DNA of 64,000 bases, from the NCBI GenBank assembly GCA_001824435.1, contig MHXH01000016.1, positions 14,970-78,969 of the forward strand, written 5' to 3'. This stretch comes from Parcubacteria group bacterium RIFCSPLOWO2_01_FULL_48_18 (GTDB lineage: Bacteria > Patescibacteriota > Minisyncoccia > UBA6257 > WO2-01-48-18). The notes below the pieces were generated by a model that worked only from the letters and a program-made list of their open reading frames with translations, had not been told where the DNA came from and searched no databases. The position numbers were made by a program, and so were the translations under genes. Below, piece by piece: positions 44,363-55,613 of this stretch (position 1 is its first letter; each line of letters opens with the position of its first letter).

Positions 44363-45445
44363 CTAATATGAGAAAATGTTTCTTCCTAGCGTGATGGAGG
44401 GATTATTCTCCTTGTCGTTGGTTGAGACAATGAATTTTTCCGACGGATTCGCAAGGAATGCGTCGGCCGCAGCGTCGTAAAGCCGAGGGACGATTCTGTC
44501 GAAATAGGGATAATAGAGAGGGAATAGTTCAACGTCTATCTCCTTGAGGAAGTTTTTTGCCCGCGATCTGCTCATCGGTTCGGGAACGCGGAGGTTATCC
44601 ACATTTGGTTGGATTAAAATAATGGCGGCTCCTTCGGCAATTGCGCAGCGCAGCTGGTTTGTTATGAGTACTCGTACGTTGTCGCGGATATAATGGAGGA
44701 GCTTGCGAGAGAGGGATTCGTCGTCCGGCGGAGGATCCCAGTTGTAGGTTATCATGTGCGCGAGAATGACGAGTTCTTTTGGATCGCTCCCGCCGTTTTT
44801 GCGAGCTTGAATGATAGAAGTCGTAGGAAGGGGTTCGAGGCGTGCCGCATCGCTGTAAGCGACCCCATCGATCCATTGAGGCCCAAAATAGACCGGATGT
44901 GCCGATGATGCAACTACCGCAGAAGAGATGGTTGTCTCCGGCGTGCTATCCGGAGAGAAAACAGTTGCCTTGCCCCCGTGGTCTTTGTTGCTTGGAGTGG
45001 CAAGTATGGAGAAGCGAGGAAACGACATTGAGAACCTATCCCGTTCCGGTGTTATGGTGCTCCGGATGAGAAATCGGAAATGGTCTCCGTTCACGATCCC
45101 GGCCCTCTTTCCAAATGCTCGTTGTAATCCCCGCAAGGCAAGATTGACCGTTGAGAGCGTTTTGGGGCCGACCATGTTTTTCAGCCTTGTCGACCGGAAG
45201 AGATTTTCCATACGGACCGGATCAAGGCCGGAACAGAAGAAGGCGGCAGAGATCGAACCGGCGGATGACCCCCAAACAGAAGAAATAAGATTTCTATGCG
45301 GCCAGAGGGGTTTTAAAAATGCTTGCGTGGATGCTAGCGCATGCATCGCACCAGCGCCGCAGCTTACCGCAGCCGTGAAGCCAGCCTCGTTGATGCGCCT
45401 GAGAAGCCGACCCGCTGCATCGGGCGGTACAGCCGTATCCGGCAT
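44363..45445 (-). CDS. Patatin-like phospholipase
   Basis: CGAGA, GSSAG nucleophile, ASSAHPVYF, YSDA. Confidence 0.8.
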   Translation of the reverse strand: MPDTAVPPDAAGRLLRRINEAGFTAAVSCGAGAMHALASTQAFLKPLWPHRNLISSVWGSSAGSISAAFFCSGLDPVRMENLFRSTRLKNMVGPKTLSTVNLALRGLQRAFGKRAGIVNGDHFRFLIRSTITPERDRFSMSFPRFSILATPSNKDHGGKATVFSPDSTPETTISSAVVASSAHPVYFGPQWIDGVAYSDAARLEPLPTTSIIQARKNGGSDPKELVILAHMITYNWDPPPDDESLSRKLLHYIRDNVRVLITNQLRCAIAEGAAIILIQPNVDNLRVPEPMSRSRAKNFLKEIDVELFPLYYPYFDRIVPRLYDAAADAFLANPSEKFIVSTNDKENNPSITLGRNIFSY

Positions 45446-45640: not shown

Positions 45641-48028
45641 ATGGATCGATTTTCTGCAAAGTTTCATGTAGCTCTTTTGTGCGGCGGCCCATCGCTTGAG
45701 CGGGGCATTTCCCTCAATTCTGCCCGGTCGGTAGTGGACCATCTCGAATCCGAAGAAATCTCCGTACAGCCAATCTATTTTGATTTCAGGAAAAATCCCT
45801 ACAAAATTTCAAGGGCGCAATTGTATTGCAACACTCCCTCTGATTTTGACTTCAAGTTGAACCGAACGGCAACGCCGTTCACGGAACGATCGCTTGTCCG
45901 TTTTCTCAGGGCGGTAGATATTATTTTCCCCGTTATGCACGGACCATTCGGCGAGGACGGCGAGATCCAGTCTTTTCTTGAACGGTATAACCTCCCGTTC
46001 GTCGGCTCAGGGGCAAAAACATGTAAAAAGGCCTTTGATAAATTTACTGCAAATGAATATATAAAACAGCACGGCTTTTTTACTTTGCCATCGGTTGTGC
46101 TCAAGATATATCATCACGATCATAAATACATTCTCGAAAGATTTTTCAAAGAGTATCGAGTCAAGCGTGCCGTGGTAAAACCCGCAAGCGGAGGATCGAG
46201 CATCGGGGTGTTTTCGGTATCCAGCGCTCGCGAAGCGCTGGAAAAATCGAACCTTCTTTTCTCGAGACGAATGGACACCCGTGTCGTAGTTGAACCCTTT
46301 GCCAAGGGGGCAGAGTTTACGACTGTCATGCTTGAAAATCGTTTCGGGCTGCCGGTTGCGTTGCCGCCCACCGAGATCGAAACCGACTATGCCGAGCATC
46401 AAATTTTCGATTTCAGGAAAAAATACCTGCCGACTCGCCAAGTAACATGGCATTGCCCCCCCAGATTTGATAATTGGACGATCGAAAAAATTCAAGCGCA
46501 GGCAGAACAACTGTTTGCGTTATTTCATATGCGCGATTTTGGCAGATTTGACGGTTGGGTACTGCCCGGCGGAGATATCTGGTTTTGCGATCTTAACCCG
46601 ATAAGCGGCATGGAGCAAAATAGTTTTCTGTTTCAGCAGGCATCGCGCATCGGCATGACGCACGGCGATGTGCTGCGTCACATTGTTAGAAGGGCATGCG
46701 AGAGATACGGCATAGATTTTCCAGAGATCGTCCTGAAGCCCCCCGCGCGCCGCAAAAAGGTAAATATCATAATGGGCGGCGACAATTCCGAAAGGCAGGT
46801 TTCTTTGATAAGCGGTACGAATGTATGGCTTAAGCTCCGCCGCTCCAAGCGGTACGAACCGCAGCCATATCTGTTGGATACCAGAGGTTATGTATGGCGG
46901 CTGCCCTATCATCTGTGTTTGAATCATACTGTTGAAGAAATTGCCGAGGATTGCGAGGGGTATCAATATACGAAGAACAGACTTGCTGTATTCGAAGAGC
47001 GCGCTCGGCTGCGATTGGGATTCTTGAAACCAAAAGACAAAGAAGAATTTTTTGAACCGAGCAAATTAGCGTTCAAGAAGTTCATTAAAACATCGGACCT
47101 CATTTTTATCGCCCTTCACGGAGGCGACGGAGAGAATGGAAATTTGCAGAAATTGCTTGGCGCGCAGGGAGTAAAGTTCAACGGTCCGTACGAAGAAGCG
47201 TCCCGACTTTGCATGGACAAGTGGGACACTGCAAGCTTTATCAACAACGCGGGTATCGCGGGCGTCAGTGCTATTCCAGGCAAAACGATTGAAACCCGTG
47301 CCGTGCTCCGGTTCGATGACCGGGGCATCAGATTATTCTGGCGAAAAACCAGGAAGGAGATTGGGGCAAAGACGTTGATCGTAAAGCCTCGCGCCGACGG
47401 TTGCACCACCGGAGTTGTTCATCTCCGCTCGCCGAACGACCTTAAAAAATACGCAGAGCTGCTCTTTAAAAAAGCGCCCGTTGTGCCGCGGCAGACATTT
47501 AGGGGGCAGAGGGATATTATAGAAATGCCTCCGGCCTTGCCCCGTGACCTGCTCTTCGAGAAATTTATTGAAACCGACGCATTGCGCGTTAAAGCCGGTA
47601 CGTTAAAATATCAGCGTCGCACGGGGTGGATTGAAATTACTGTCGGCATCGTTGAGATAGACGGCGAACTCAAGGTCCTTAGTCCAAGCATTACCGTGGT
47701 TGAGAGCGAAGTGTTAACCGTAGAGGAAAAGTTTCAGGGCGGCACCGGCGTCAACATTACGCCGCCGCCGCCGAGCATCATGAAACCGGCAGTACTCAAG
47801 AGGGTGAAGGACCTGATTGAGGAAGTCGCGCGCAAGATCGGCATCCGCGGTTATTCGCGGATTGACGCGTTTGCCAATGTTGACAGCGGCGACGCGTTGA
47901 TTATCGAGGTAAACACGCTGCCCGGCCTTACCCCTTCAACCGTTTTTTTTCACCAGGCGTTGGCAGAATCACCTCCGCTTTTTCCCGCGGAACTCCTGGA
48001 GATTTTGATCCGGAATAAAAGGTATTAA
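45641..48028 (+). CDS. ddl: Tandem double-domain D-alanine--D-alanine ligase family protein
   Basis: Two ATP-grasp repeats: GGPSLERGISL/HGPFGEDG and GGDNSERQVSL/HGGDGENG...EVNTLPGLT. Confidence 0.88.
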   Translation: MDRFSAKFHVALLCGGPSLERGISLNSARSVVDHLESEEISVQPIYFDFRKNPYKISRAQLYCNTPSDFDFKLNRTATPFTERSLVRFLRAVDIIFPVMHGPFGEDGEIQSFLERYNLPFVGSGAKTCKKAFDKFTANEYIKQHGFFTLPSVVLKIYHHDHKYILERFFKEYRVKRAVVKPASGGSSIGVFSVSSAREALEKSNLLFSRRMDTRVVVEPFAKGAEFTTVMLENRFGLPVALPPTEIETDYAEHQIFDFRKKYLPTRQVTWHCPPRFDNWTIEKIQAQAEQLFALFHMRDFGRFDGWVLPGGDIWFCDLNPISGMEQNSFLFQQASRIGMTHGDVLRHIVRRACERYGIDFPEIVLKPPARRKKVNIIMGGDNSERQVSLISGTNVWLKLRRSKRYEPQPYLLDTRGYVWRLPYHLCLNHTVEEIAEDCEGYQYTKNRLAVFEERARLRLGFLKPKDKEEFFEPSKLAFKKFIKTSDLIFIALHGGDGENGNLQKLLGAQGVKFNGPYEEASRLCMDKWDTASFINNAGIAGVSAIPGKTIETRAVLRFDDRGIRLFWRKTRKEIGAKTLIVKPRADGCTTGVVHLRSPNDLKKYAELLFKKAPVVPRQTFRGQRDIIEMPPALPRDLLFEKFIETDALRVKAGTLKYQRRTGWIEITVGIVEIDGELKVLSPSITVVESEVLTVEEKFQGGTGVNITPPPPSIMKPAVLKRVKDLIEEVARKIGIRGYSRIDAFANVDSGDALIIEVNTLPGLTPSTVFFHQALAESPPLFPAELLEILIRNKRY

Positions 48029-48105: not shown

Positions 48106-48933
48106 TCATCGAACCGCGTCTTCAAATAAAGTTATTAGGAATTTTGTATTTACACCCGCCTTTCCGTTGCCGATGCGCAAGCTATCAATTTTTATTACGG
48201 GCATAATTTCCTTATTCGTTGCCGCAATAAATGCCTCGGAGGCGCCCCTAAGTTCCTGCAAACGGATGTTTCTCTCTTGTATAACGAAGTATTTTCGCGC
48301 TAAAGAAAGCACGAATTTTCTGGTTATTCCCAAAAGAATATCCCGCCTCGGCGTGATAAGGACATTGCGCCTGAATATAAAAAAATTGCTCGTCGTGCAT
48401 TCCAGCGCTTTGCCGTTTGACACATATAGGGTTTCGAGCGCCCCCCTGCGCAGTCTACGAATATGATCGTGAAACGCACTGAGATAGTTAATGGTTTTCG
48501 CCCGAGCAAATTCCCGTTGATGCTCTTTCGTAATCAGTTTAATTCCCTTTGTATGCGCCGACTGCGGGTAGGTATGTGGTTGTTCCAGAAGGATACAAAT
48601 ATCGGAAGAAAAACTCTTTGCGTCTTTGTCAAAATTTTTGGCCAAGACTAGGATACGAATATCCGCCTCTCCTATTTTATTCTTCTCAAGCAAAAACCCT
48701 ATTATTCTTTCAATTCTTTGCGCGGATATGGGCAACGACAGGTAGAGCGCCCGCGCGGAGTTTTTGAGCCGCGCGAGGTGTTCCGCAAGCCGGAAAGGCA
48801 CACCTCCATACATTCGTATAAATTCAAAAACACCGTATCCCCGCTGAAGGCCTAGGTTGCGAACATTAATATTTGCGTTTTGTACGGAAACAATTTTTCC
48901 GTTTACAAAACACCAACGAGGCGATGCCATCAT
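48106..48933 (-). CDS. Class IV PLP aminotransferase (D-amino acid aminotransferase-like)
   Basis: RGYGVFE, HLARL, KTINY, ECTTSNFF, ILLGITR. Confidence 0.85.
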   Translation of the reverse strand: MMASPRWCFVNGKIVSVQNANINVRNLGLQRGYGVFEFIRMYGGVPFRLAEHLARLKNSARALYLSLPISAQRIERIIGFLLEKNKIGEADIRILVLAKNFDKDAKSFSSDICILLEQPHTYPQSAHTKGIKLITKEHQREFARAKTINYLSAFHDHIRRLRRGALETLYVSNGKALECTTSNFFIFRRNVLITPRRDILLGITRKFVLSLARKYFVIQERNIRLQELRGASEAFIAATNKEIMPVIKIDSLRIGNGKAGVNTKFLITLFEDAVR

Positions 48934-48976
48934 AATCGTGCCGCTATGCCGGCTCCTGCCATTATATCATTTTTTT

Positions 48977-49104
48977 ACCCCGCACCAGAAAGCCCCAGAC
49001 TCCTGTTTGGGGATGAAGGTGCTAAGCCCGAAGGGCTTTCGGTGCGGGGTTTCGCTCCGCGCCGAATCGAAAGAAGCCGCCGACTCCTGTCGGCGGAGCT
49101 TCAC
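48977..49104 (+). mobile_element. Non-autonomous IS200/IS605-derived miniature element (PATE/MITE-like)
   Basis: Twin subterminal hairpins AAGCCCCAGAC-TCCT-GTTTGGGGA and AAGCCGCCGAC-TCCT-GTCGGCGGAG, ending in TTCAC; no ORF. Confidence 0.6.
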
Positions 49105-49205
49105 TACCTAACACAAATCGACTAGAGCATAGGGGGGTAGCAGCTTCTCTGCGATTATCCCCAATGGAGTTGATCCTTTCTTCGACACCCGGTATCATAA
49201 ATGTA

Positions 49206-49259
49206 ATGGAACGGTTTGCAACTGCAACTACCACGACCACGACCCGCACGTACCGCTGA
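49206..49259 (+). CDS. thrL: thr operon leader peptide MERFATATTTTTTRTYR
   Basis: 8 Thr codons in 17, six consecutive, ending 67 nt upstream of thrA ATG. Confidence 0.85.
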   Translation: MERFATATTTTTTRTYR

Positions 49260-49318
49260 GGCGATGTTGTAGTTAAAAGCGTAAAAATTGGAATCATACA
49301 TCGGCCTCAGGGGGGTCG
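49240..49318 (+). promoter_or_regulatory. Attenuator hairpin sequestering the thrA ribosome-binding site
   Basis: CGACCC..CTGAGG-CGATGT pairs with ACATCG-g-CCTCAG..GGGTCG, covering AGGGGGGT upstream of ATG 49327. Confidence 0.65.
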
Positions 49319-49326
49319 ATTTTCTT

Positions 49327-51765
49327 ATGAAGATCAAACGGGTTTTAAAATTCGGCGGCACATCGTTGGGATCTCCAGATGCCATCAGAAGAGCCAGCGC
49401 CATTATCAGGGAAGCGGCGCAGCGGGGGGCAATAGCCGTTGTTGTTTCTGCGTTTTCCGGCGTTACTGATCAGCTTTTGTGCTGCGCCAGATGGGCAGAG
49501 AAACAGAATCCTGAATTGAGGCAAGAACTGCGTCGGCTACGCATGCGTCATTTTGAAACGGCTCGAAAACTTTTTCCGGCAAAGCTTCGCGAGGAAGCTA
49601 GGGCGCCCTTGGAGCAATTATTTAAAGAATTGGAGGGGCGTCTTATGCGCATTGAAAAAGGAAAGGCTGCGTCGGTTCAAGACCTCGATGCTGTCGCAGG
49701 CATTGGAGAACGCCTATCCGCCCCCATCATTGCCGCTTACCTAAACAGTTTTGACACCAAACGTCATCCGTTCAGGTCATACACTATAGACGCCAGGGGT
49801 TTAATTAAGACCGACAGCTGCTTCGGAAGGGCCAGTGTTGATTTTGTTAAGACCGACCGCAATATTAAAGAGTTTTTCCATGGCCGTCCCGGAGGTAAAA
49901 ATATGGTTCCCGTGCTAACCGGCTTTATCGGGTCAACCGATGGGGGCGAAACCACAACGCTCGGTCGAGGCGGGTCTGATTACACTGCCGCAATCGTCGC
50001 TGCGGCCATCGATGCGAAACTCGTCGAAATATGGACCGATGTTGATGGGGTAATGAGTGCCGACCCCAATCTTGTTACGCACGCATATCTCTTGCCGCAA
50101 CTGACCTATTCCGAAGCGATTGAAATGGCATATTTCGGCGCTAAGGTTATCCATCCGGCAACCATGCTTCCGGCAATTAAAAAGAAAATTCCTATTCTCA
50201 TCAAAAATACATTTAACCCATCCTCGTCAGGCACTCTTATTTCCCATGGCGCATCCAGCGATAACAATCAAACCGTAAAAGGCATTACCGCAATAGATGA
50301 TGTTGCCATTATAAATATAGGTGGCGTGAGTTTGGCGGGTATACCCGGTTCAGCCGCCAGAGTTTTTAAGGCGACTGCCGCCGCGGGCGCCAATGTTGTT
50401 TTAATATCGCAGGCGTCGTCAGAGCATACAATCTGCATTGCGATAAAAAGAGAGAGCCTTGCCCCGGCCCTCTATTCTCTCCGAAAAGAATTTAGGGAAG
50501 CGATAAAACAAAAACAGGTAACGCTTCACACAATCAAGGATCAATCCATTGTTGCCGTCGTGGGAGACGGCATGCGGGGAACGCCTGGCGTTGCCGGCAA
50601 GTTATTTAACGCCCTTGCTGAACACGGGATAAACATTTCCGCGATTGCCCAAGGGGGCTCTGAACGAAATATTTCTCTTGTAGTAAAATCGTCCGACAAA
50701 GCAGCTGCGCTTAACGTCATCCATAATGCGTTTTTACGGGTTCCGCCAAAACACATCTTTCTAGCAGGCACCGGCAATATAGGGGGCAAGCTTCTAGAGC
50801 AGATGAAGGCCCATCCTCATCTCAGGGTATGCGGTCTTATTAACACCGATTTTATGCTTTCTGACTCGAGGGGCATTCAACTTGACCGGTGGAGCATTTT
50901 ATTGGGTCGCGGCCAGCAAGCTAACGTACAAACATGGCTCTCGCGGGCACGAACCCTCAATCTGTCGAATAAAATTTTTGTTGATTGCACTGCCAGCAAA
51001 AAAATCGCTCGGCAGTACTGCAACATTGCCCGGGCCGGTTTTCATATTGTAACGCCGAACAAGATATTCAATGTGTTACCATTTGACGAATACCAAAAGC
51101 TGCGCCGCATTTTGGCGCAAAACAACAAGCGCTTCCTTTATGAAACAACGGTTGGCGCGGCTATGCCGATCATCTCTACGCTAAGAGATCTTGTTGCTAG
51201 CGGGGATGGCATTACCAGGATCGAGGGTATTTTTTCCGGAACGCTCAGTTATATCCTAAGCGCTTACGACGGAAAAAGACCGTTTAGCTCGGTGGTGCTG
51301 GAAGCGAAGGAAAAAGGCTATACCGAGCCCGATCCTAGAACTGACCTTTCAGGAGAAGATGTGGGAAGAAAACTGCTTATTCTGGCCCGCGAAATAGGCC
51401 TGCCGCTTGAAATGGAAGACATAAAAGTCCAAAGTTTGGTGCCTCCCCCCCTGCGAAAAGTAAAATCGGCAGACTCGTTTTTGGCGCGTTTGAAAGACTA
51501 CGACAAACAGTTTGAAAAACTATGCAAACGCGCTAGAGTAAGAGGACGGGCGCTGCGATACGTGGCAACGCTTCAAGGAAGGCGGGCGTCGGTATCGCTT
51601 AAAGAAATTCCATTGACCGATCCTTTGTCCTCTACTCGTGGCGCTGATAATATCTTTGTTTTTTATACCAAGCGCTACAACGAACGGCCGTTGGTGGTTC
51701 AAGGGCCCGGAGCCGGCGCCGCAGTCACCGCTGGAGGGGTGTTGACGGACATTCTTAAAATCTAG
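49327..51765 (+). CDS. thrA: Bifunctional aspartate kinase / homoserine dehydrogenase
   Basis: VLKFGGTS, TLGRGGSDY, two ACT domains, GTGNIG, YETTVGA, GYTEPDPR, GPGAG. Confidence 0.95.
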   Translation: MKIKRVLKFGGTSLGSPDAIRRASAIIREAAQRGAIAVVVSAFSGVTDQLLCCARWAEKQNPELRQELRRLRMRHFETARKLFPAKLREEARAPLEQLFKELEGRLMRIEKGKAASVQDLDAVAGIGERLSAPIIAAYLNSFDTKRHPFRSYTIDARGLIKTDSCFGRASVDFVKTDRNIKEFFHGRPGGKNMVPVLTGFIGSTDGGETTTLGRGGSDYTAAIVAAAIDAKLVEIWTDVDGVMSADPNLVTHAYLLPQLTYSEAIEMAYFGAKVIHPATMLPAIKKKIPILIKNTFNPSSSGTLISHGASSDNNQTVKGITAIDDVAIINIGGVSLAGIPGSAARVFKATAAAGANVVLISQASSEHTICIAIKRESLAPALYSLRKEFREAIKQKQVTLHTIKDQSIVAVVGDGMRGTPGVAGKLFNALAEHGINISAIAQGGSERNISLVVKSSDKAAALNVIHNAFLRVPPKHIFLAGTGNIGGKLLEQMKAHPHLRVCGLINTDFMLSDSRGIQLDRWSILLGRGQQANVQTWLSRARTLNLSNKIFVDCTASKKIARQYCNIARAGFHIVTPNKIFNVLPFDEYQKLRRILAQNNKRFLYETTVGAAMPIISTLRDLVASGDGITRIEGIFSGTLSYILSAYDGKRPFSSVVLEAKEKGYTEPDPRTDLSGEDVGRKLLILAREIGLPLEMEDIKVQSLVPPPLRKVKSADSFLARLKDYDKQFEKLCKRARVRGRALRYVATLQGRRASVSLKEIPLTDPLSSTRGADNIFVFYTKRYNERPLVVQGPGAGAAVTAGGVLTDILKI

Positions 51766-51862
51766 AATATGGAATTTGAAATTTGAAGACTATTTGAAAT
51801 AAAAAAAGTGGCGCTCGCAAACAGCGTGTAGCGCCACAGATATGACAGTGCCGTCGTGATAG

Positions 51863-52060
51863 TTATACTAGCCTTACCACTCGTTCCACGAAGGGATCAA
51901 GGAAGCCCGATACATTCCCGCCAGCGGAACGGATGCGCCCATCAACGATTTCAACCCGGATAGCCAAACCTAAACCAGAGTAGAAATCAGGGTTAAGGCC
52001 AAGCATGCTCATGACTTCATTTTGGCGGTCAAGCTTGATGATTGCGACAAGGTTATTCAC
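51863..52060 (-). CDS. Small hypothetical protein antisense within the thr operon
   Basis: 65 aa; SD GAGGAG before GTG; minus-strand TGCTATAAT at 52115-52123; hairpin GTGGCGCT/AGCGCCAC downstream. Confidence 0.5.
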   Translation of the reverse strand: MNNLVAIIKLDRQNEVMSMLGLNPDFYSGLGLAIRVEIVDGRIRSAGGNVSGFLDPFVERVVRLV

Positions 52061-52136: not shown

Positions 52137-53225
52137 ATGTCAATCCCCAAAATATGTAAATTGCGAGTTGGCATATTGGGCGCGACAGGCATTGTGGGAC
52201 AAAAGTTTATTGTCCTGCTTCAAAACCATCCGTGGTTTGAGCTCGTTTCTGTTGCTGCGTCTGAAGAATCAGCCGGAAAAACGTACGAAAAGGCGGTTGC
52301 CGGAAGATGGAAGCAGCAAGTCGATATCCCAAAAAATGTCGCTCGAACGAAGGTGTCCCAATGCGACCCGCACGCCATGCAAGCGGACTTCGTGTTTTCC
52401 GGATTGGACGGGGCAGTGGCCAAAGACATCGAAAGGTCTTTTGCGGAAAGCGGTATTCCGGTTATTTCCAATACCAAAACGTACCGCATGGAAGAAGACG
52501 TACCGCTCCTTATCCCCGAAATTAATCCGGACCATATTCGGCTCATTGATATACAACGTAAAAGGCGGCAGTGGTCCGGATTTATCGTTACCAATCCCAA
52601 CTGTGTTGCAATTCCGCTGGCAATGGCGCTTAAACCTATTTATGACGCCGTGGGAATCCAAAAAGTTTCTGTGGTGTCTATGCAGGCGATCTCGGGCGCC
52701 GGATTTCCCGGCGTCGCCTCTATAGATATTGTGGACAACCTCATTCCATATATCGTTGGGGAAGAGCCGAAGGTAGAAACCGAACCGTTGAAACTCTTGG
52801 GAAAACTTGCGGCTGGAAAAGTGAAATTCGCCGCATTTCCGATTTCAGCGCAGTGCAACAGAGTGGCAGTACAAGATGGACATTTTTTGAATATTTCGTT
52901 TACAACCGCAAAAAAAACATCGGTCGAGCGGCTTAAAAAATTGATACGAGATTTCAGAGGCGAGCCGCAAAAACTAAAATTGCCCTCTGCGCCCCAAAAT
53001 CCGCTTATATATCTCGATGATGATTTTAGGCCGCAACCGCGGCTGGACCGTGACCGCGAAGGTGGAATGGCGATAACCATAGGCCGCCTCCGTGAATGCC
53101 CTGTATTTGGGTATAAGATGGCGGTTCTCGGCCACAACACTATCCGCGGAGCTGCCGGCGCAGCTATTCTTAACGCTGAGTTGCTGTATAAAAAGGGTTA
53201 TCTTGTTCGTTCTCGTTTCTCATAG
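52137..53225 (+). CDS. asd: Aspartate-semialdehyde dehydrogenase (archaeal/fungal-like type)
   Basis: GILGATGIVGQ, VTNPNC, QAISGAG, HNTIRGAAG. Confidence 0.95.
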   Translation: MSIPKICKLRVGILGATGIVGQKFIVLLQNHPWFELVSVAASEESAGKTYEKAVAGRWKQQVDIPKNVARTKVSQCDPHAMQADFVFSGLDGAVAKDIERSFAESGIPVISNTKTYRMEEDVPLLIPEINPDHIRLIDIQRKRRQWSGFIVTNPNCVAIPLAMALKPIYDAVGIQKVSVVSMQAISGAGFPGVASIDIVDNLIPYIVGEEPKVETEPLKLLGKLAAGKVKFAAFPISAQCNRVAVQDGHFLNISFTTAKKTSVERLKKLIRDFRGEPQKLKLPSAPQNPLIYLDDDFRPQPRLDRDREGGMAITIGRLRECPVFGYKMAVLGHNTIRGAAGAAILNAELLYKKGYLVRSRFS

Positions 53226-53775: not shown

Positions 53776-54285
53776 ATGCGTACCAACACAAAACAAAGCA
53801 TCACATTAATCGGCATGCCGGGGTCGGGTAAGTCGACTATCGGGCGGCTCGTTGCGCGGCGGCTGAATTGGAATTTCGTCGACCTCGATGACGTCATTAA
53901 AGAAAAAGATGGAAAGAGCCACGCGGAGATTCTTGAATTCGACGGAGAGAAAACGCTCCTTGCGCGTGAAGAGGCGCATACGCTTGGACTTGTTTTTTCA
54001 AACCTTGTATTCTCGCCGGGCGGGAGCATTATCTATTCGCCGAAGGCGATGGAAAAACTCCGCAGTGAAACGCGCGTCATCTATCTTGCGCTTCCGCTTC
54101 CTGAAATAAAAAAACGCCTCGGCAAAAAAATCAACGACCGCGGCATTGTGGGGCTTGCCAAAAAAGGGATTGAAGGATTATTTAAAGAACGCGCGCCGCA
54201 GTACAAAGCGGCTGCCCACCATACTGTTGATTGTTTGAACCTGCGTAAACAGGAAATTGTAAAAAGAATTCTTCAAGACGCATGA
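53776..54285 (+). CDS. Shikimate kinase-like P-loop kinase (candidate homoserine kinase)
   Basis: LIGMPGSGKSTIG, FVDLD, SPGGS, ERAPQY; stop overlaps thrC start (ATGA). Confidence 0.8.
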   Translation: MRTNTKQSITLIGMPGSGKSTIGRLVARRLNWNFVDLDDVIKEKDGKSHAEILEFDGEKTLLAREEAHTLGLVFSNLVFSPGGSIIYSPKAMEKLRSETRVIYLALPLPEIKKRLGKKINDRGIVGLAKKGIEGLFKERAPQYKAAAHHTVDCLNLRKQEIVKRILQDA

Positions 54286-55613
54286 AATACTACAGTACCA
54301 ACAAACGCGCTCCGCTTGTTACTTTTAAAGAAGCGCTTCTCCGTGGTCTTGCGCCGGACGGAGGCCTGTACATGCCGCAGTCGTTCCCGAAATTTCCTAT
54401 TTCTTTTTGGAATGATATCGAAAAAACAAGCTCTGGTCGCGTTGCATTTGATCTTTTGCGTCATTTTATCACAGACATACCGGCGCCAGCATTTAAAAAA
54501 ATCATCCGTGATGCATTCAATTTTCCGGCACCGCTTGTGCGACTTAACGACAATGTATATGTGCTGGAACTCTTTCACGGCCCAACGCTTTCTTTCAAAG
54601 ATTTCGGCGCGCGATTTATGGCGCGTACAATGGGATATTACCTCCGTTCCCAGAAAAAGAAATTGTATATTTTTGTGGCTACGTCCGGAGATACCGGAAG
54701 CGCGGTTGCGCACGGTTTTTTTAATATTCCCGGAGTACGCGTGTTCATTCTGTATCCTTCGGGTCGCGTGAGCAGAAACCAGGAGAAACAACTTACGACA
54801 TTCGGAAAAAATATCACGGCGTTTGAAATTAAGGGGAATTTTGACGACTGTCAGCAGCTCGCAAAACAGCTTTTGAACGATCCCGATATTCGAAAAAGGG
54901 CTCTCGTTTCATCCGCCAATTCAATAAACATCGGCCGTCTACTGCCGCAGATGTTTTATTATCTCTTCGGTTGGGCGCAGCTTCAAAGCCGTAGAACTGT
55001 CGAGCTATCGAGCTGTCAAGTTCCTATTTTTGTGGTCCCGAGCGGTAATTTCGGGAATATATGCGCCGGGCTTTTTGCAAAAAAACTTGGGCTTCCGGCC
55101 AAAAAATTCATCGCGGCGGTAAATATAAACAGCGGCGTGCCGGAATATTTAAAGACTGGCCGCCTTCCCGTGAAAAAAACGAGGCGCACGCTTTCAAGCG
55201 CAATGGACGTGGGACTCCCAAGCAATTTCGCGCGGATCCTTGATTTATATGGCCATAACCGGGAGTCTTTGCAAAAAGATTTAGACGCGGCCATAGTGAC
55301 AGATCGTGAAACAAAAAAGACCATCCACGAAACATACGAGAAATATGGTTATATCGCCGATCCCCATACTGCGGTAGGAATTGCCGCAGGGCTTCGGTAT
55401 CGCGAATCGGGCCGGGGAAACGATCCGATAATTGTCCTTTCAACCGCCCATCCCGCAAAATTTCCGGAAGCCGTCGAAAAACAAATTAAAGAAAAGCTTA
55501 CTGTGCCCGGCTCGCTCCGCAGAATAATCAGAAGAAAGAACAGGGGCGTCCTCGCAAAGAACAACCCTGAAGATCTAAAAAGACTTATCGGAAAATACAT
55601 AAAACATCCATGA
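54282..55613 (+). CDS. thrC: Threonine synthase
   Basis: GLAPDGGLY, ELFHGPTLSFKDFG, ATSGDTG, VPSGNFGN, TAHPAKF. Confidence 0.96.
   Translation: MKYYSTNKRAPLVTFKEALLRGLAPDGGLYMPQSFPKFPISFWNDIEKTSSGRVAFDLLRHFITDIPAPAFKKIIRDAFNFPAPLVRLNDNVYVLELFHGPTLSFKDFGARFMARTMGYYLRSQKKKLYIFVATSGDTGSAVAHGFFNIPGVRVFILYPSGRVSRNQEKQLTTFGKNITAFEIKGNFDDCQQLAKQLLNDPDIRKRALVSSANSINIGRLLPQMFYYLFGWAQLQSRRTVELSSCQVPIFVVPSGNFGNICAGLFAKKLGLPAKKFIAAVNINSGVPEYLKTGRLPVKKTRRTLSSAMDVGLPSNFARILDLYGHNRESLQKDLDAAIVTDRETKKTIHETYEKYGYIADPHTAVGIAAGLRYRESGRGNDPIIVLSTAHPAKFPEAVEKQIKEKLTVPGSLRRIIRRKNRGVLAKNNPEDLKRLIGKYIKHP

Follow-up and report, generated by a model that had tools for sequence, protein, structure and literature searches.

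A predicted threonine leader-peptide attenuator, likely leaderless, upstream of thrA in a Patescibacteria genome

Results

The thrA leader and its promoter

The window analyzed here is a stretch of 64,000 nucleotides (nt) from Parcubacteria group bacterium RIFCSPLOWO2_01_FULL_48_18 (contig MHXH01000016.1, positions 14,970 to 78,969), whose genome is designated G000 below. It carries a thr gene cluster opened by thrA (Table 1), and our subject is the short leader region immediately upstream of this gene. In Escherichia coli, the thrL leader senses Thr and Ile by transcription attenuation.

An open reading frame (ORF) of 17 codons precedes thrA, from which it is separated by 67 nt, and its translation is MERFATATTTTTTRTYR. 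It contains 8 Thr and no Ile, as the sequence-only reading of this DNA had described, and it therefore has the Thr codon-rich character of thrL/trpL-type leaders. Six consecutive Thr are found in only 2 of the 22,393 short ORFs (8-35 amino acids) of G000, and the Thr run of the leader is not due to chance. Longer leaders starting at 49164 or 49170 were rejected, as both starts lie upstream of the -10 box. A loose filter for leaderless ORFs with amino-acid runs gave 21 candidates in G000; by eye, only the thrA leader resembled an attenuator.

A promoter-like sequence, TTGATC-17-TATCAT, is present upstream of the leader and had been overlooked earlier. As 7 nt separate its -10-like hexamer from the leader ATG, transcription likely begins at this ATG or directly beside it; no Shine-Dalgarno (SD) sequence precedes the ATG. 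A -10 hexamer occurs 12-15 nt upstream of 19 of the 20 Thr-run leader starts collected (see below), against 19 of 267 nearby ATG or GTG codons. Also, upstream of 781 long ORFs of G000, the -10 hexamers peak at -12 and -13 (54 and 30, compared with about 13 elsewhere). These sequence features suggest that the leader ORF is likely leaderless.

Competing hairpins and ribosome position

Two hairpins follow the leader. The long stem already noticed at this place is confirmed: region 2 pairs with region 3, and the fold of 49250-49315 has an energy of -22.9 kcal/mol (z = -3.64), a value that none of 200 shuffles reached. The absence of a classical short terminator, stated in the sequence-only reading, is contradicted by a terminator scan, which revealed a hairpin of 9 pairs (5 G-C, 3 G-U) with the tail TTTCTT. 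Its energy is -11.5 kcal/mol (z = -2.69), which 3 of 200 shuffles equalled, and 6 U lie within the 8 nt past its last G-C pair. When the 80 nt downstream of the leader stop were subjected to 60 dinucleotide shuffles, no equally good combination of hairpin and U tail arose. By prediction, it is a terminator of moderate strength. The 5' arm of this terminator is the partner strand of the 2:3 stem, thus both hairpins are mutually exclusive. A weak 1:2 fold is also present. This arrangement, with a 2:3 antiterminator that excludes a 3:4 hairpin followed by a U tract and predicted to act as an intrinsic terminator, has the same four-region layout as E. coli thrL.

The RNA was then folded codon by codon under the constraint of a 9-nt ribosome footprint. 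The computed probability of the terminator is 0.00-0.01 with the ribosome on codons 1-13 and 0.96 on codons 14-18, a switch point located directly after the Thr run; with a 12-nt footprint, the switch moves to codon 13. The spacing is that of thrL/trpL-type attenuators, as region 2 is free when the ribosome is stalled and covered when it is at the stop codon (per-codon model; 19 of 23 leaders). In transcripts ending at the terminator loop, the 5' arm of the terminator is more sequestered in the stalled state than in the terminating state in 19 of the 23 leaders, and E. coli thrL, run identically, behaves similarly on this co-transcriptional measure (0.69 to 0.14). Equilibrium folding, under which 15 of 23 leaders switch, was dropped as a general test because E. 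coli thrL also fails it. The switch described here is thus a computed one.

The mechanism that we infer runs from use of the promoter and a leaderless start, through translation of the leader, stalling and ribosome-polymerase coupling, to termination. The ribosome would load at the extreme 5' end of the RNA. A shortage of charged tRNA-Thr would stall it on the Thr codons, the antiterminator would form and the polymerase would enter thrA. When Thr is ample, a ribosome reaching codons 14-18 would cover region 2 and leave region 3 to pair with region 4, and the 3:4 hairpin with its U tract would end transcription just upstream of the thrA start codon. We consider that the locus encodes a Thr leader-peptide transcription attenuator of the classical kind, likely leaderless and in a Thr-only form, with a probability of roughly 70%.

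Conservation among relatives

Among 401 sampled genomes of the order, 30 bear thrA, and the DNA upstream of these genes was inspected. A Thr-run leader precedes thrA in 18 of the 30 (12 of 14 and 5 of 14 in two families, plus G000), so the leader is kept upstream of related thrA genes. Sampling at the level of the class and of the phylum yielded few more thrA loci (4 and 10 of 401), and further phylum-level thrA-like loci (L056-L058, L063) had no Thr leader. Short ORFs rich in Thr or in both Thr and Ile also occur at 18 of the 79 metagenome loci inspected, which are more distant and of unknown taxonomy, and a Thr/Ile leader was seen in two Melioribacteraceae records; such leaders are thus not confined to Patescibacteria.

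With duplicates counted once and two start codons reset by hand, the collection comprises 23 distinct leaders, i.e., the order set together with L051 (another order), L066 (a metagenome contig), L011 and L016 (Ile/Thr) and L050 (atypical). Twenty are of the Thr-run type. These contain 132 Thr among 344 residues, compared with a background of 5.6%, and use all four Thr codons (50, 37, 26 and 19 times). It is therefore the amino acid, and not the nucleotide sequence, that is conserved, and peptide conservation is limited to the Thr run. The 2:3 duplex was better than 200 shuffles (p < 0.05) in 20 of the 23 leaders, the three misses being cases where the analyzed segment clipped region 3. The hairpin and U tail were better than 60 shuffles in 20 of 23, and at least 5 U within 8 nt were present in 22 of 23, a feature in part built into the finder. 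RNAalifold, run on 13 of the 20 leaders picked for alignability, gave an antiterminator core of 7 pairs with 87.5% of cells paired, compared with 30-48% in slid controls, and with two-sided changes at 3 of the 7 pairs. A rigid-register pair table was discounted as covariation, as its register had been chosen to maximize pairing.

Other observations were made on these loci. By eye, L043 and L045 retain terminator remnants without a leader, and several leaderless-looking thrA genes retain the -10 box only. DNA is inserted between the terminator and thrA in L030 (a small ORF) and in L029 (a palindromic insert). The Ile/Thr leaders L011 and L016 carry the region-2 motif of the Thr-leader family. 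L011 is a 0.9-Mb record labelled Gammaproteobacteria, whose ThrA nests in the Patescibacteria clade, which suggests a wrong label or a transfer. Also, in L059 and L060 (G939, G1027), a leader of 16 codons with 5 Lys codons lies about 140 nt upstream of a monofunctional aspartate kinase gene, with a 2:3 stem of -19.0/-17.9 kcal/mol and a rival hairpin of -12.4/-11.8 kcal/mol with a U7 tail. From these sequences, it is a candidate lysine leader-peptide attenuator. About 25 nt separate its -10-like box from the ATG, so it is not leaderless.

Presumed sensing of Thr without Ile

Across 37 genomes checked, some of them 66-89% complete and related to each other, ilvD was not found in G000, in the 28 of 28 thrA genomes of the two families or in G437. 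The gene was found in three genomes, those with the mixed Ile/Thr leaders L011, L016 and L015. By our own reading of their N-termini, the three PALP enzymes present in G000 look like ThrC, another threonine synthase and a cysteine synthase, so that no Thr-to-Ile route is apparent.

Alternative explanations

The sequence-only reading had proposed a translational attenuator, in which a ribosome stalled on Thr codons opens the long stem and frees the ribosome-binding site (RBS) of thrA. Control of thrA by a Thr-sensing leader peptide is supported, and the leader is conserved in relatives, but the opening of one long stem is not supported as the main mechanism. A ribosome running to the stop codon would also open this stem, so that the single-stem model has no OFF state when Thr is plentiful; the OFF structure that it lacks is the terminator hairpin. 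In a repaired version, which we consider unlikely, the mRNA would be full-length, its RBS would be masked by an outer helix in naked RNA or by the 3:4 hairpin with the ribosome at the stop codon, and a Thr stall would free it. The source locus offers several points in its favor. The hairpin ends 6 nt from the thrA ATG, and pairing of its G run to a generic anti-SD is worth -10.4 kcal/mol (the two partial 16S genes of the G000 assembly lack their 3' end). Four bases of the G-rich arm are unpaired on stalling and paired at the stop, bases -13 to -10 being unpaired with a stall at codons 10-12 (0.8-0.99) and not at the stop (0.00-0.01). SD motifs are in use in G000, and mycobacterial polycysteine leaderless ORFs give a precedent (10.1101/834739).

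The outer helix CGACCC/GGGTCG is indeed present in the minimum-energy fold of naked RNA, but it is lost when folds extend 20 nt into thrA, and in 0 of 20 leaders did it beat shuffles. The G run, taken as the RBS, is SD-like but ends 11-12 nt before the ATG, a wide spacing compared with the genome mode of 7-8 nt. Opening the thrA start region of the source locus is predicted to cost the same in all three ribosome states (15.5, 15.0 and 15.3 kcal/mol). Over the 23 leaders, the distance from hairpin to thrA ranges from 6 to 302 nt (up to 14 nt in 9, more than 14 nt in 14, with a small ORF between in one); most homologs have A/T-rich thrA start regions with no SD, and U tails are retained throughout. 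Translational attenuators of the ermC or mycobacterial Cys type have a conserved RBS-masking helix opened by stalling and no intrinsic terminator, whereas here such a helix is not conserved and a terminator is predicted. The variable distance, the general lack of SD, the non-conserved outer helix and the state-independent opening cost favor termination over RBS masking. Since the hairpin covers the SD-like G run, some added local block of thrA translation is possible as a secondary effect.

Several observations weigh against transcription attenuation by the Thr leader. The terminator at the source locus is of moderate predicted strength. Naked RNA of this locus prefers the 2:3 antiterminator at equilibrium (probability of the terminator 0.00, compared with 0.99 in E. 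coli), and the OFF state therefore needs a ribosome near the stop codon while the polymerase crosses the U tract. In G000, 43 of 148 predicted terminators (29%) start at most 12 nt from a stop codon, a count without a control genome that could mean loose coupling. Eight of the 23 leaders, with strong terminators, show no equilibrium switch, as does E. coli thrL. The leader was not seen in 12 of the 30 thrA genomes (11 with none and one with just 44 nt upstream). Compensatory changes in homologous leaders are seen at the 3 antiterminator pairs mentioned above, but covariation is modest: among kin that are not independent, 8 of 500 shuffles equal the percentage paired, and 137 of them have as many two-sided pairs. 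The terminator register shifts between rows (63% paired), with two-sided change at 5 of 8 pairs. As for Thr-only sensing, G633 is an exception, with ilvD and an Ile-free leader. Just 5 of the 20 leaders have no Ile at all, and the residues preceding the Thr run of homologs are enriched in Ile (19% vs. 8.5%) and in Phe (15% vs. 5%). We read this enrichment as a U-rich codon bias; Ile sensing by some homologs is possible. Finally, no threonyl-tRNA synthetase gene was found in the 96%-complete G000 assembly, where the best match is a prolyl-tRNA synthetase; the gene is probably unassembled. A thrS leader in G000 was consequently discarded as a candidate. The assembly contains three tRNA-Thr genes.

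Some of these points would suit a decayed or non-responsive element, i.e., an inherited attenuator that is now a fixed leaky terminator or inert, with poor coupling or host-derived Thr. The genomes without a leader, two of which keep terminator remnants only (L043, L045), the dominance of the antiterminator in naked RNA, the 29% of short stop-to-stem distances and an opposite-strand ORF interrupting the source thr cluster all go in this direction. However, the four regions, the Thr run and the promoter spacing are intact although ThrA is just 45-58% identical to that of relatives, and all four Thr codons are used across the 20 leaders; we hold this decay to be improbable. We hold two further readings to be very improbable, namely an action of the peptide, in trans or through nascent-chain arrest, and a supply of ribosomes to thrA by reinitiation. 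Trans-acting leader peptides and reinitiation have been proposed elsewhere (PMC4833913). Here, the Thr run alone is conserved in the peptide, and the leader stop lies 52-354 nt from thrA, outside the reinitiation range of 10-16 nt and inside the range of 40 nt or more from stop to gene that PMC4833913 gives for attenuators.

Host genome and ThrA relationships

The G000 assembly measures 1.21 Mb in 29 contigs and is 96% complete; its 60 listed relatives range from 0.5 to 1.3 Mb. Among the best 50 ThrA relatives, those named are Patescibacteria, Harrisonbacteria, Minisyncoccota or plain "bacterium" (53-58% identity), followed by Ignavibacteriales (48-49%). In a quick tree of 53 aspartate-kinase rows, from which two short rows and four duplicates were omitted, the source ThrA grouped with genomes of its order and with records named as Patescibacteria (a clade of 32 rows, support 97); the tree did not resolve a donor. 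The ribosomal protein uL30 was not found in G000, a loss that we take to be a mark of the Patescibacteria-type group. Rho was not found above cut-off, and NusG is present. Partial 16S rRNA genes, both with insertions, lie on contigs G000:C3 and G000:C23 and share 85% identity over 274 nt; two such unlike genes indicate that one is probably misbinned and that slight contamination is possible.

The thr cluster and neighboring elements

The start of thrA was placed at ATG 49327, where homologs start; the alternative TTG at 49288 was rejected, also because its ORF would cross the attenuator. The shikimate-kinase-like protein is, by its position, likely the homoserine kinase. In three named relatives, thrA, asd, the kinase and thrC are contiguous. 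At the source locus, the 65-codon ORF on the opposite strand lies behind a 12/12 promoter match, TTGACA-17-TATAAT (52143-52115), and a hairpin near 51807-51840 has its T run on the strand of this ORF. Co-transcription of thrA and asd, and the reach of the control, are therefore unsure.

Upstream, a palindromic element of about 130 nt (48976-49115) has 6 more near-full copies in the genome (91-100% identity). Its ends resemble those of the IS200/IS605 type, and it is likely a miniature mobile element between divergent promoters. A class IV aminotransferase (48106-48933) is divergent from thrA and convergent with a 795-amino-acid protein with tandem D-Ala-D-Ala ligase domains (45641-48028). For a 360-amino-acid protein (44363-45445, minus strand), the match with a Dot/Icm effector family is weak (E = 1.8e-6) and falls well short of the cut-off; presumably, the protein has a patatin-like hydrolase domain.

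Table 1. Positions in the window of the features of the thrA leader and thr cluster.
Feature	Position	Strand	Remarks
-35-like hexamer TTGATC	49170..49175	+	Hexamers of the TTGAC type are also seen across the 20 aligned leaders
-10-like hexamer TATCAT	49193..49198	+	
Leader ORF (region 1)	49206..49259	+	Thr at codons 6, 8-13 and 15; homologs in relatives
Outer-helix arm CGACCC of the sequence-only reading	49240..49245	+	Pairs with the G-rich arm in some naked-RNA folds only; not conserved
Region 2, 5' arm of the antiterminator, CTGAGGCGATGT	49256..49267	+	Overlaps the UGA stop codon
Region 3, ACATCGGCCTCAG	49298..49310	+	Pairs with region 2 in the antiterminator and with region 4 in the terminator
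Terminator hairpin 3:4 (predicted)	49300..49320	+	Arms 49300-49308/49312-49320, loop AGG; SD-like G run in the 3' arm
U tract TTTTCTT	49320..49326	+	
thrA, bifunctional aspartate kinase/homoserine dehydrogenase I (AK-HSDH I)	49327..51765	+	913 bits, cut-off 726
65-codon ORF	51863-52060	-	No NCBIfam match; convergent with thrA, splits the thr cluster
asd	52137..53225	+	Small opposite-strand ORF between thrA and asd
Shikimate-kinase-like protein	53776..54285	+	Closest to NF040667 homoserine kinase, with 130 bits against a cut-off of 197
thrC, threonine synthase	54282..55613	+	

Discussion

Patescibacteria are mostly uncultured auxotrophs whose gene regulation has hardly been described. A conserved attenuator in such cells would imply a changing Thr supply, translation of leaderless mini-genes, and a proximity of ribosome and polymerase sufficient for attenuation. 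The 160-nt cassette offers a means of testing the Thr response, leaderless translation and coupling in E. coli or in a cell-free system. Also, the leader codons set against ilvD constitute a small natural experiment on a sensor that tracks pathway loss, with few independent lineages.

A wider proposal is speculative, and we regard it as rather doubtful. Amino-acid-making Patescibacteria might run a family of leaderless-peptide attenuators with codons re-tuned to the pathways retained (Thr without ilvD, Thr and Ile with ilvD, Lys before a monofunctional aspartate kinase); this would prove that ribosome and polymerase are tightly coupled in a minimal cell without Rho, through loading at the 5' end, and one hairpin at the source locus would both terminate transcription and block thrA translation.

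In agreement with the sequence-only reading, no prior description of leader-peptide attenuation in Patescibacteria was found in the literature searched, from which most subscription journals were out of reach. Outside this group, Lopatovskaya et al. 2010 reportedly listed thrA leaders in Bacteroidetes and others.

The closest known system is E. coli thrL, which likewise has a short Thr-rich ORF before thrA, a region 2 at the stop codon, and a 2:3 stem competing with a 3:4 hairpin and U tract. It has 4 Ile codons beside its 8 Thr codons, the source leader having no Ile. The source locus, for its part, is likely leaderless, has a weaker terminator abutting the thrA start, and belongs to a host in which ilvD and Rho were not found. 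A scan against Rfam gave no match to Thr_leader RF00506 even at E = 10, and two chance matches to other families. As this family has mixed Thr/Ile control codons, the source leader departs from it both in model match and in codon mix.

The ermC and cat attenuators are alike in that a ribosome stalled in a leader ORF refolds the downstream RNA. There, an antibiotic is sensed via the nascent peptide and the output is RBS masking (10.1101/834739), whereas the source locus has a codon run and a U-tailed hairpin. The mycobacterial polycysteine ORFs of the same report resemble the Thr leader as leaderless short ORFs in which a single-amino-acid run serves as operon sensor; in the case tested, Cys is sensed and the RBS is masked, while at our locus Thr would be sensed and the conserved output is a predicted terminator. 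Predicted attenuators of Actinobacteria and other phyla also combine amino-acid-run leaders with terminators outside enterobacteria, and the accessible portions of these studies name no Thr leader or Patescibacteria (PMC1262725; PMC2965389). The proposed mechanism is a textbook one, and the host and the format are new.

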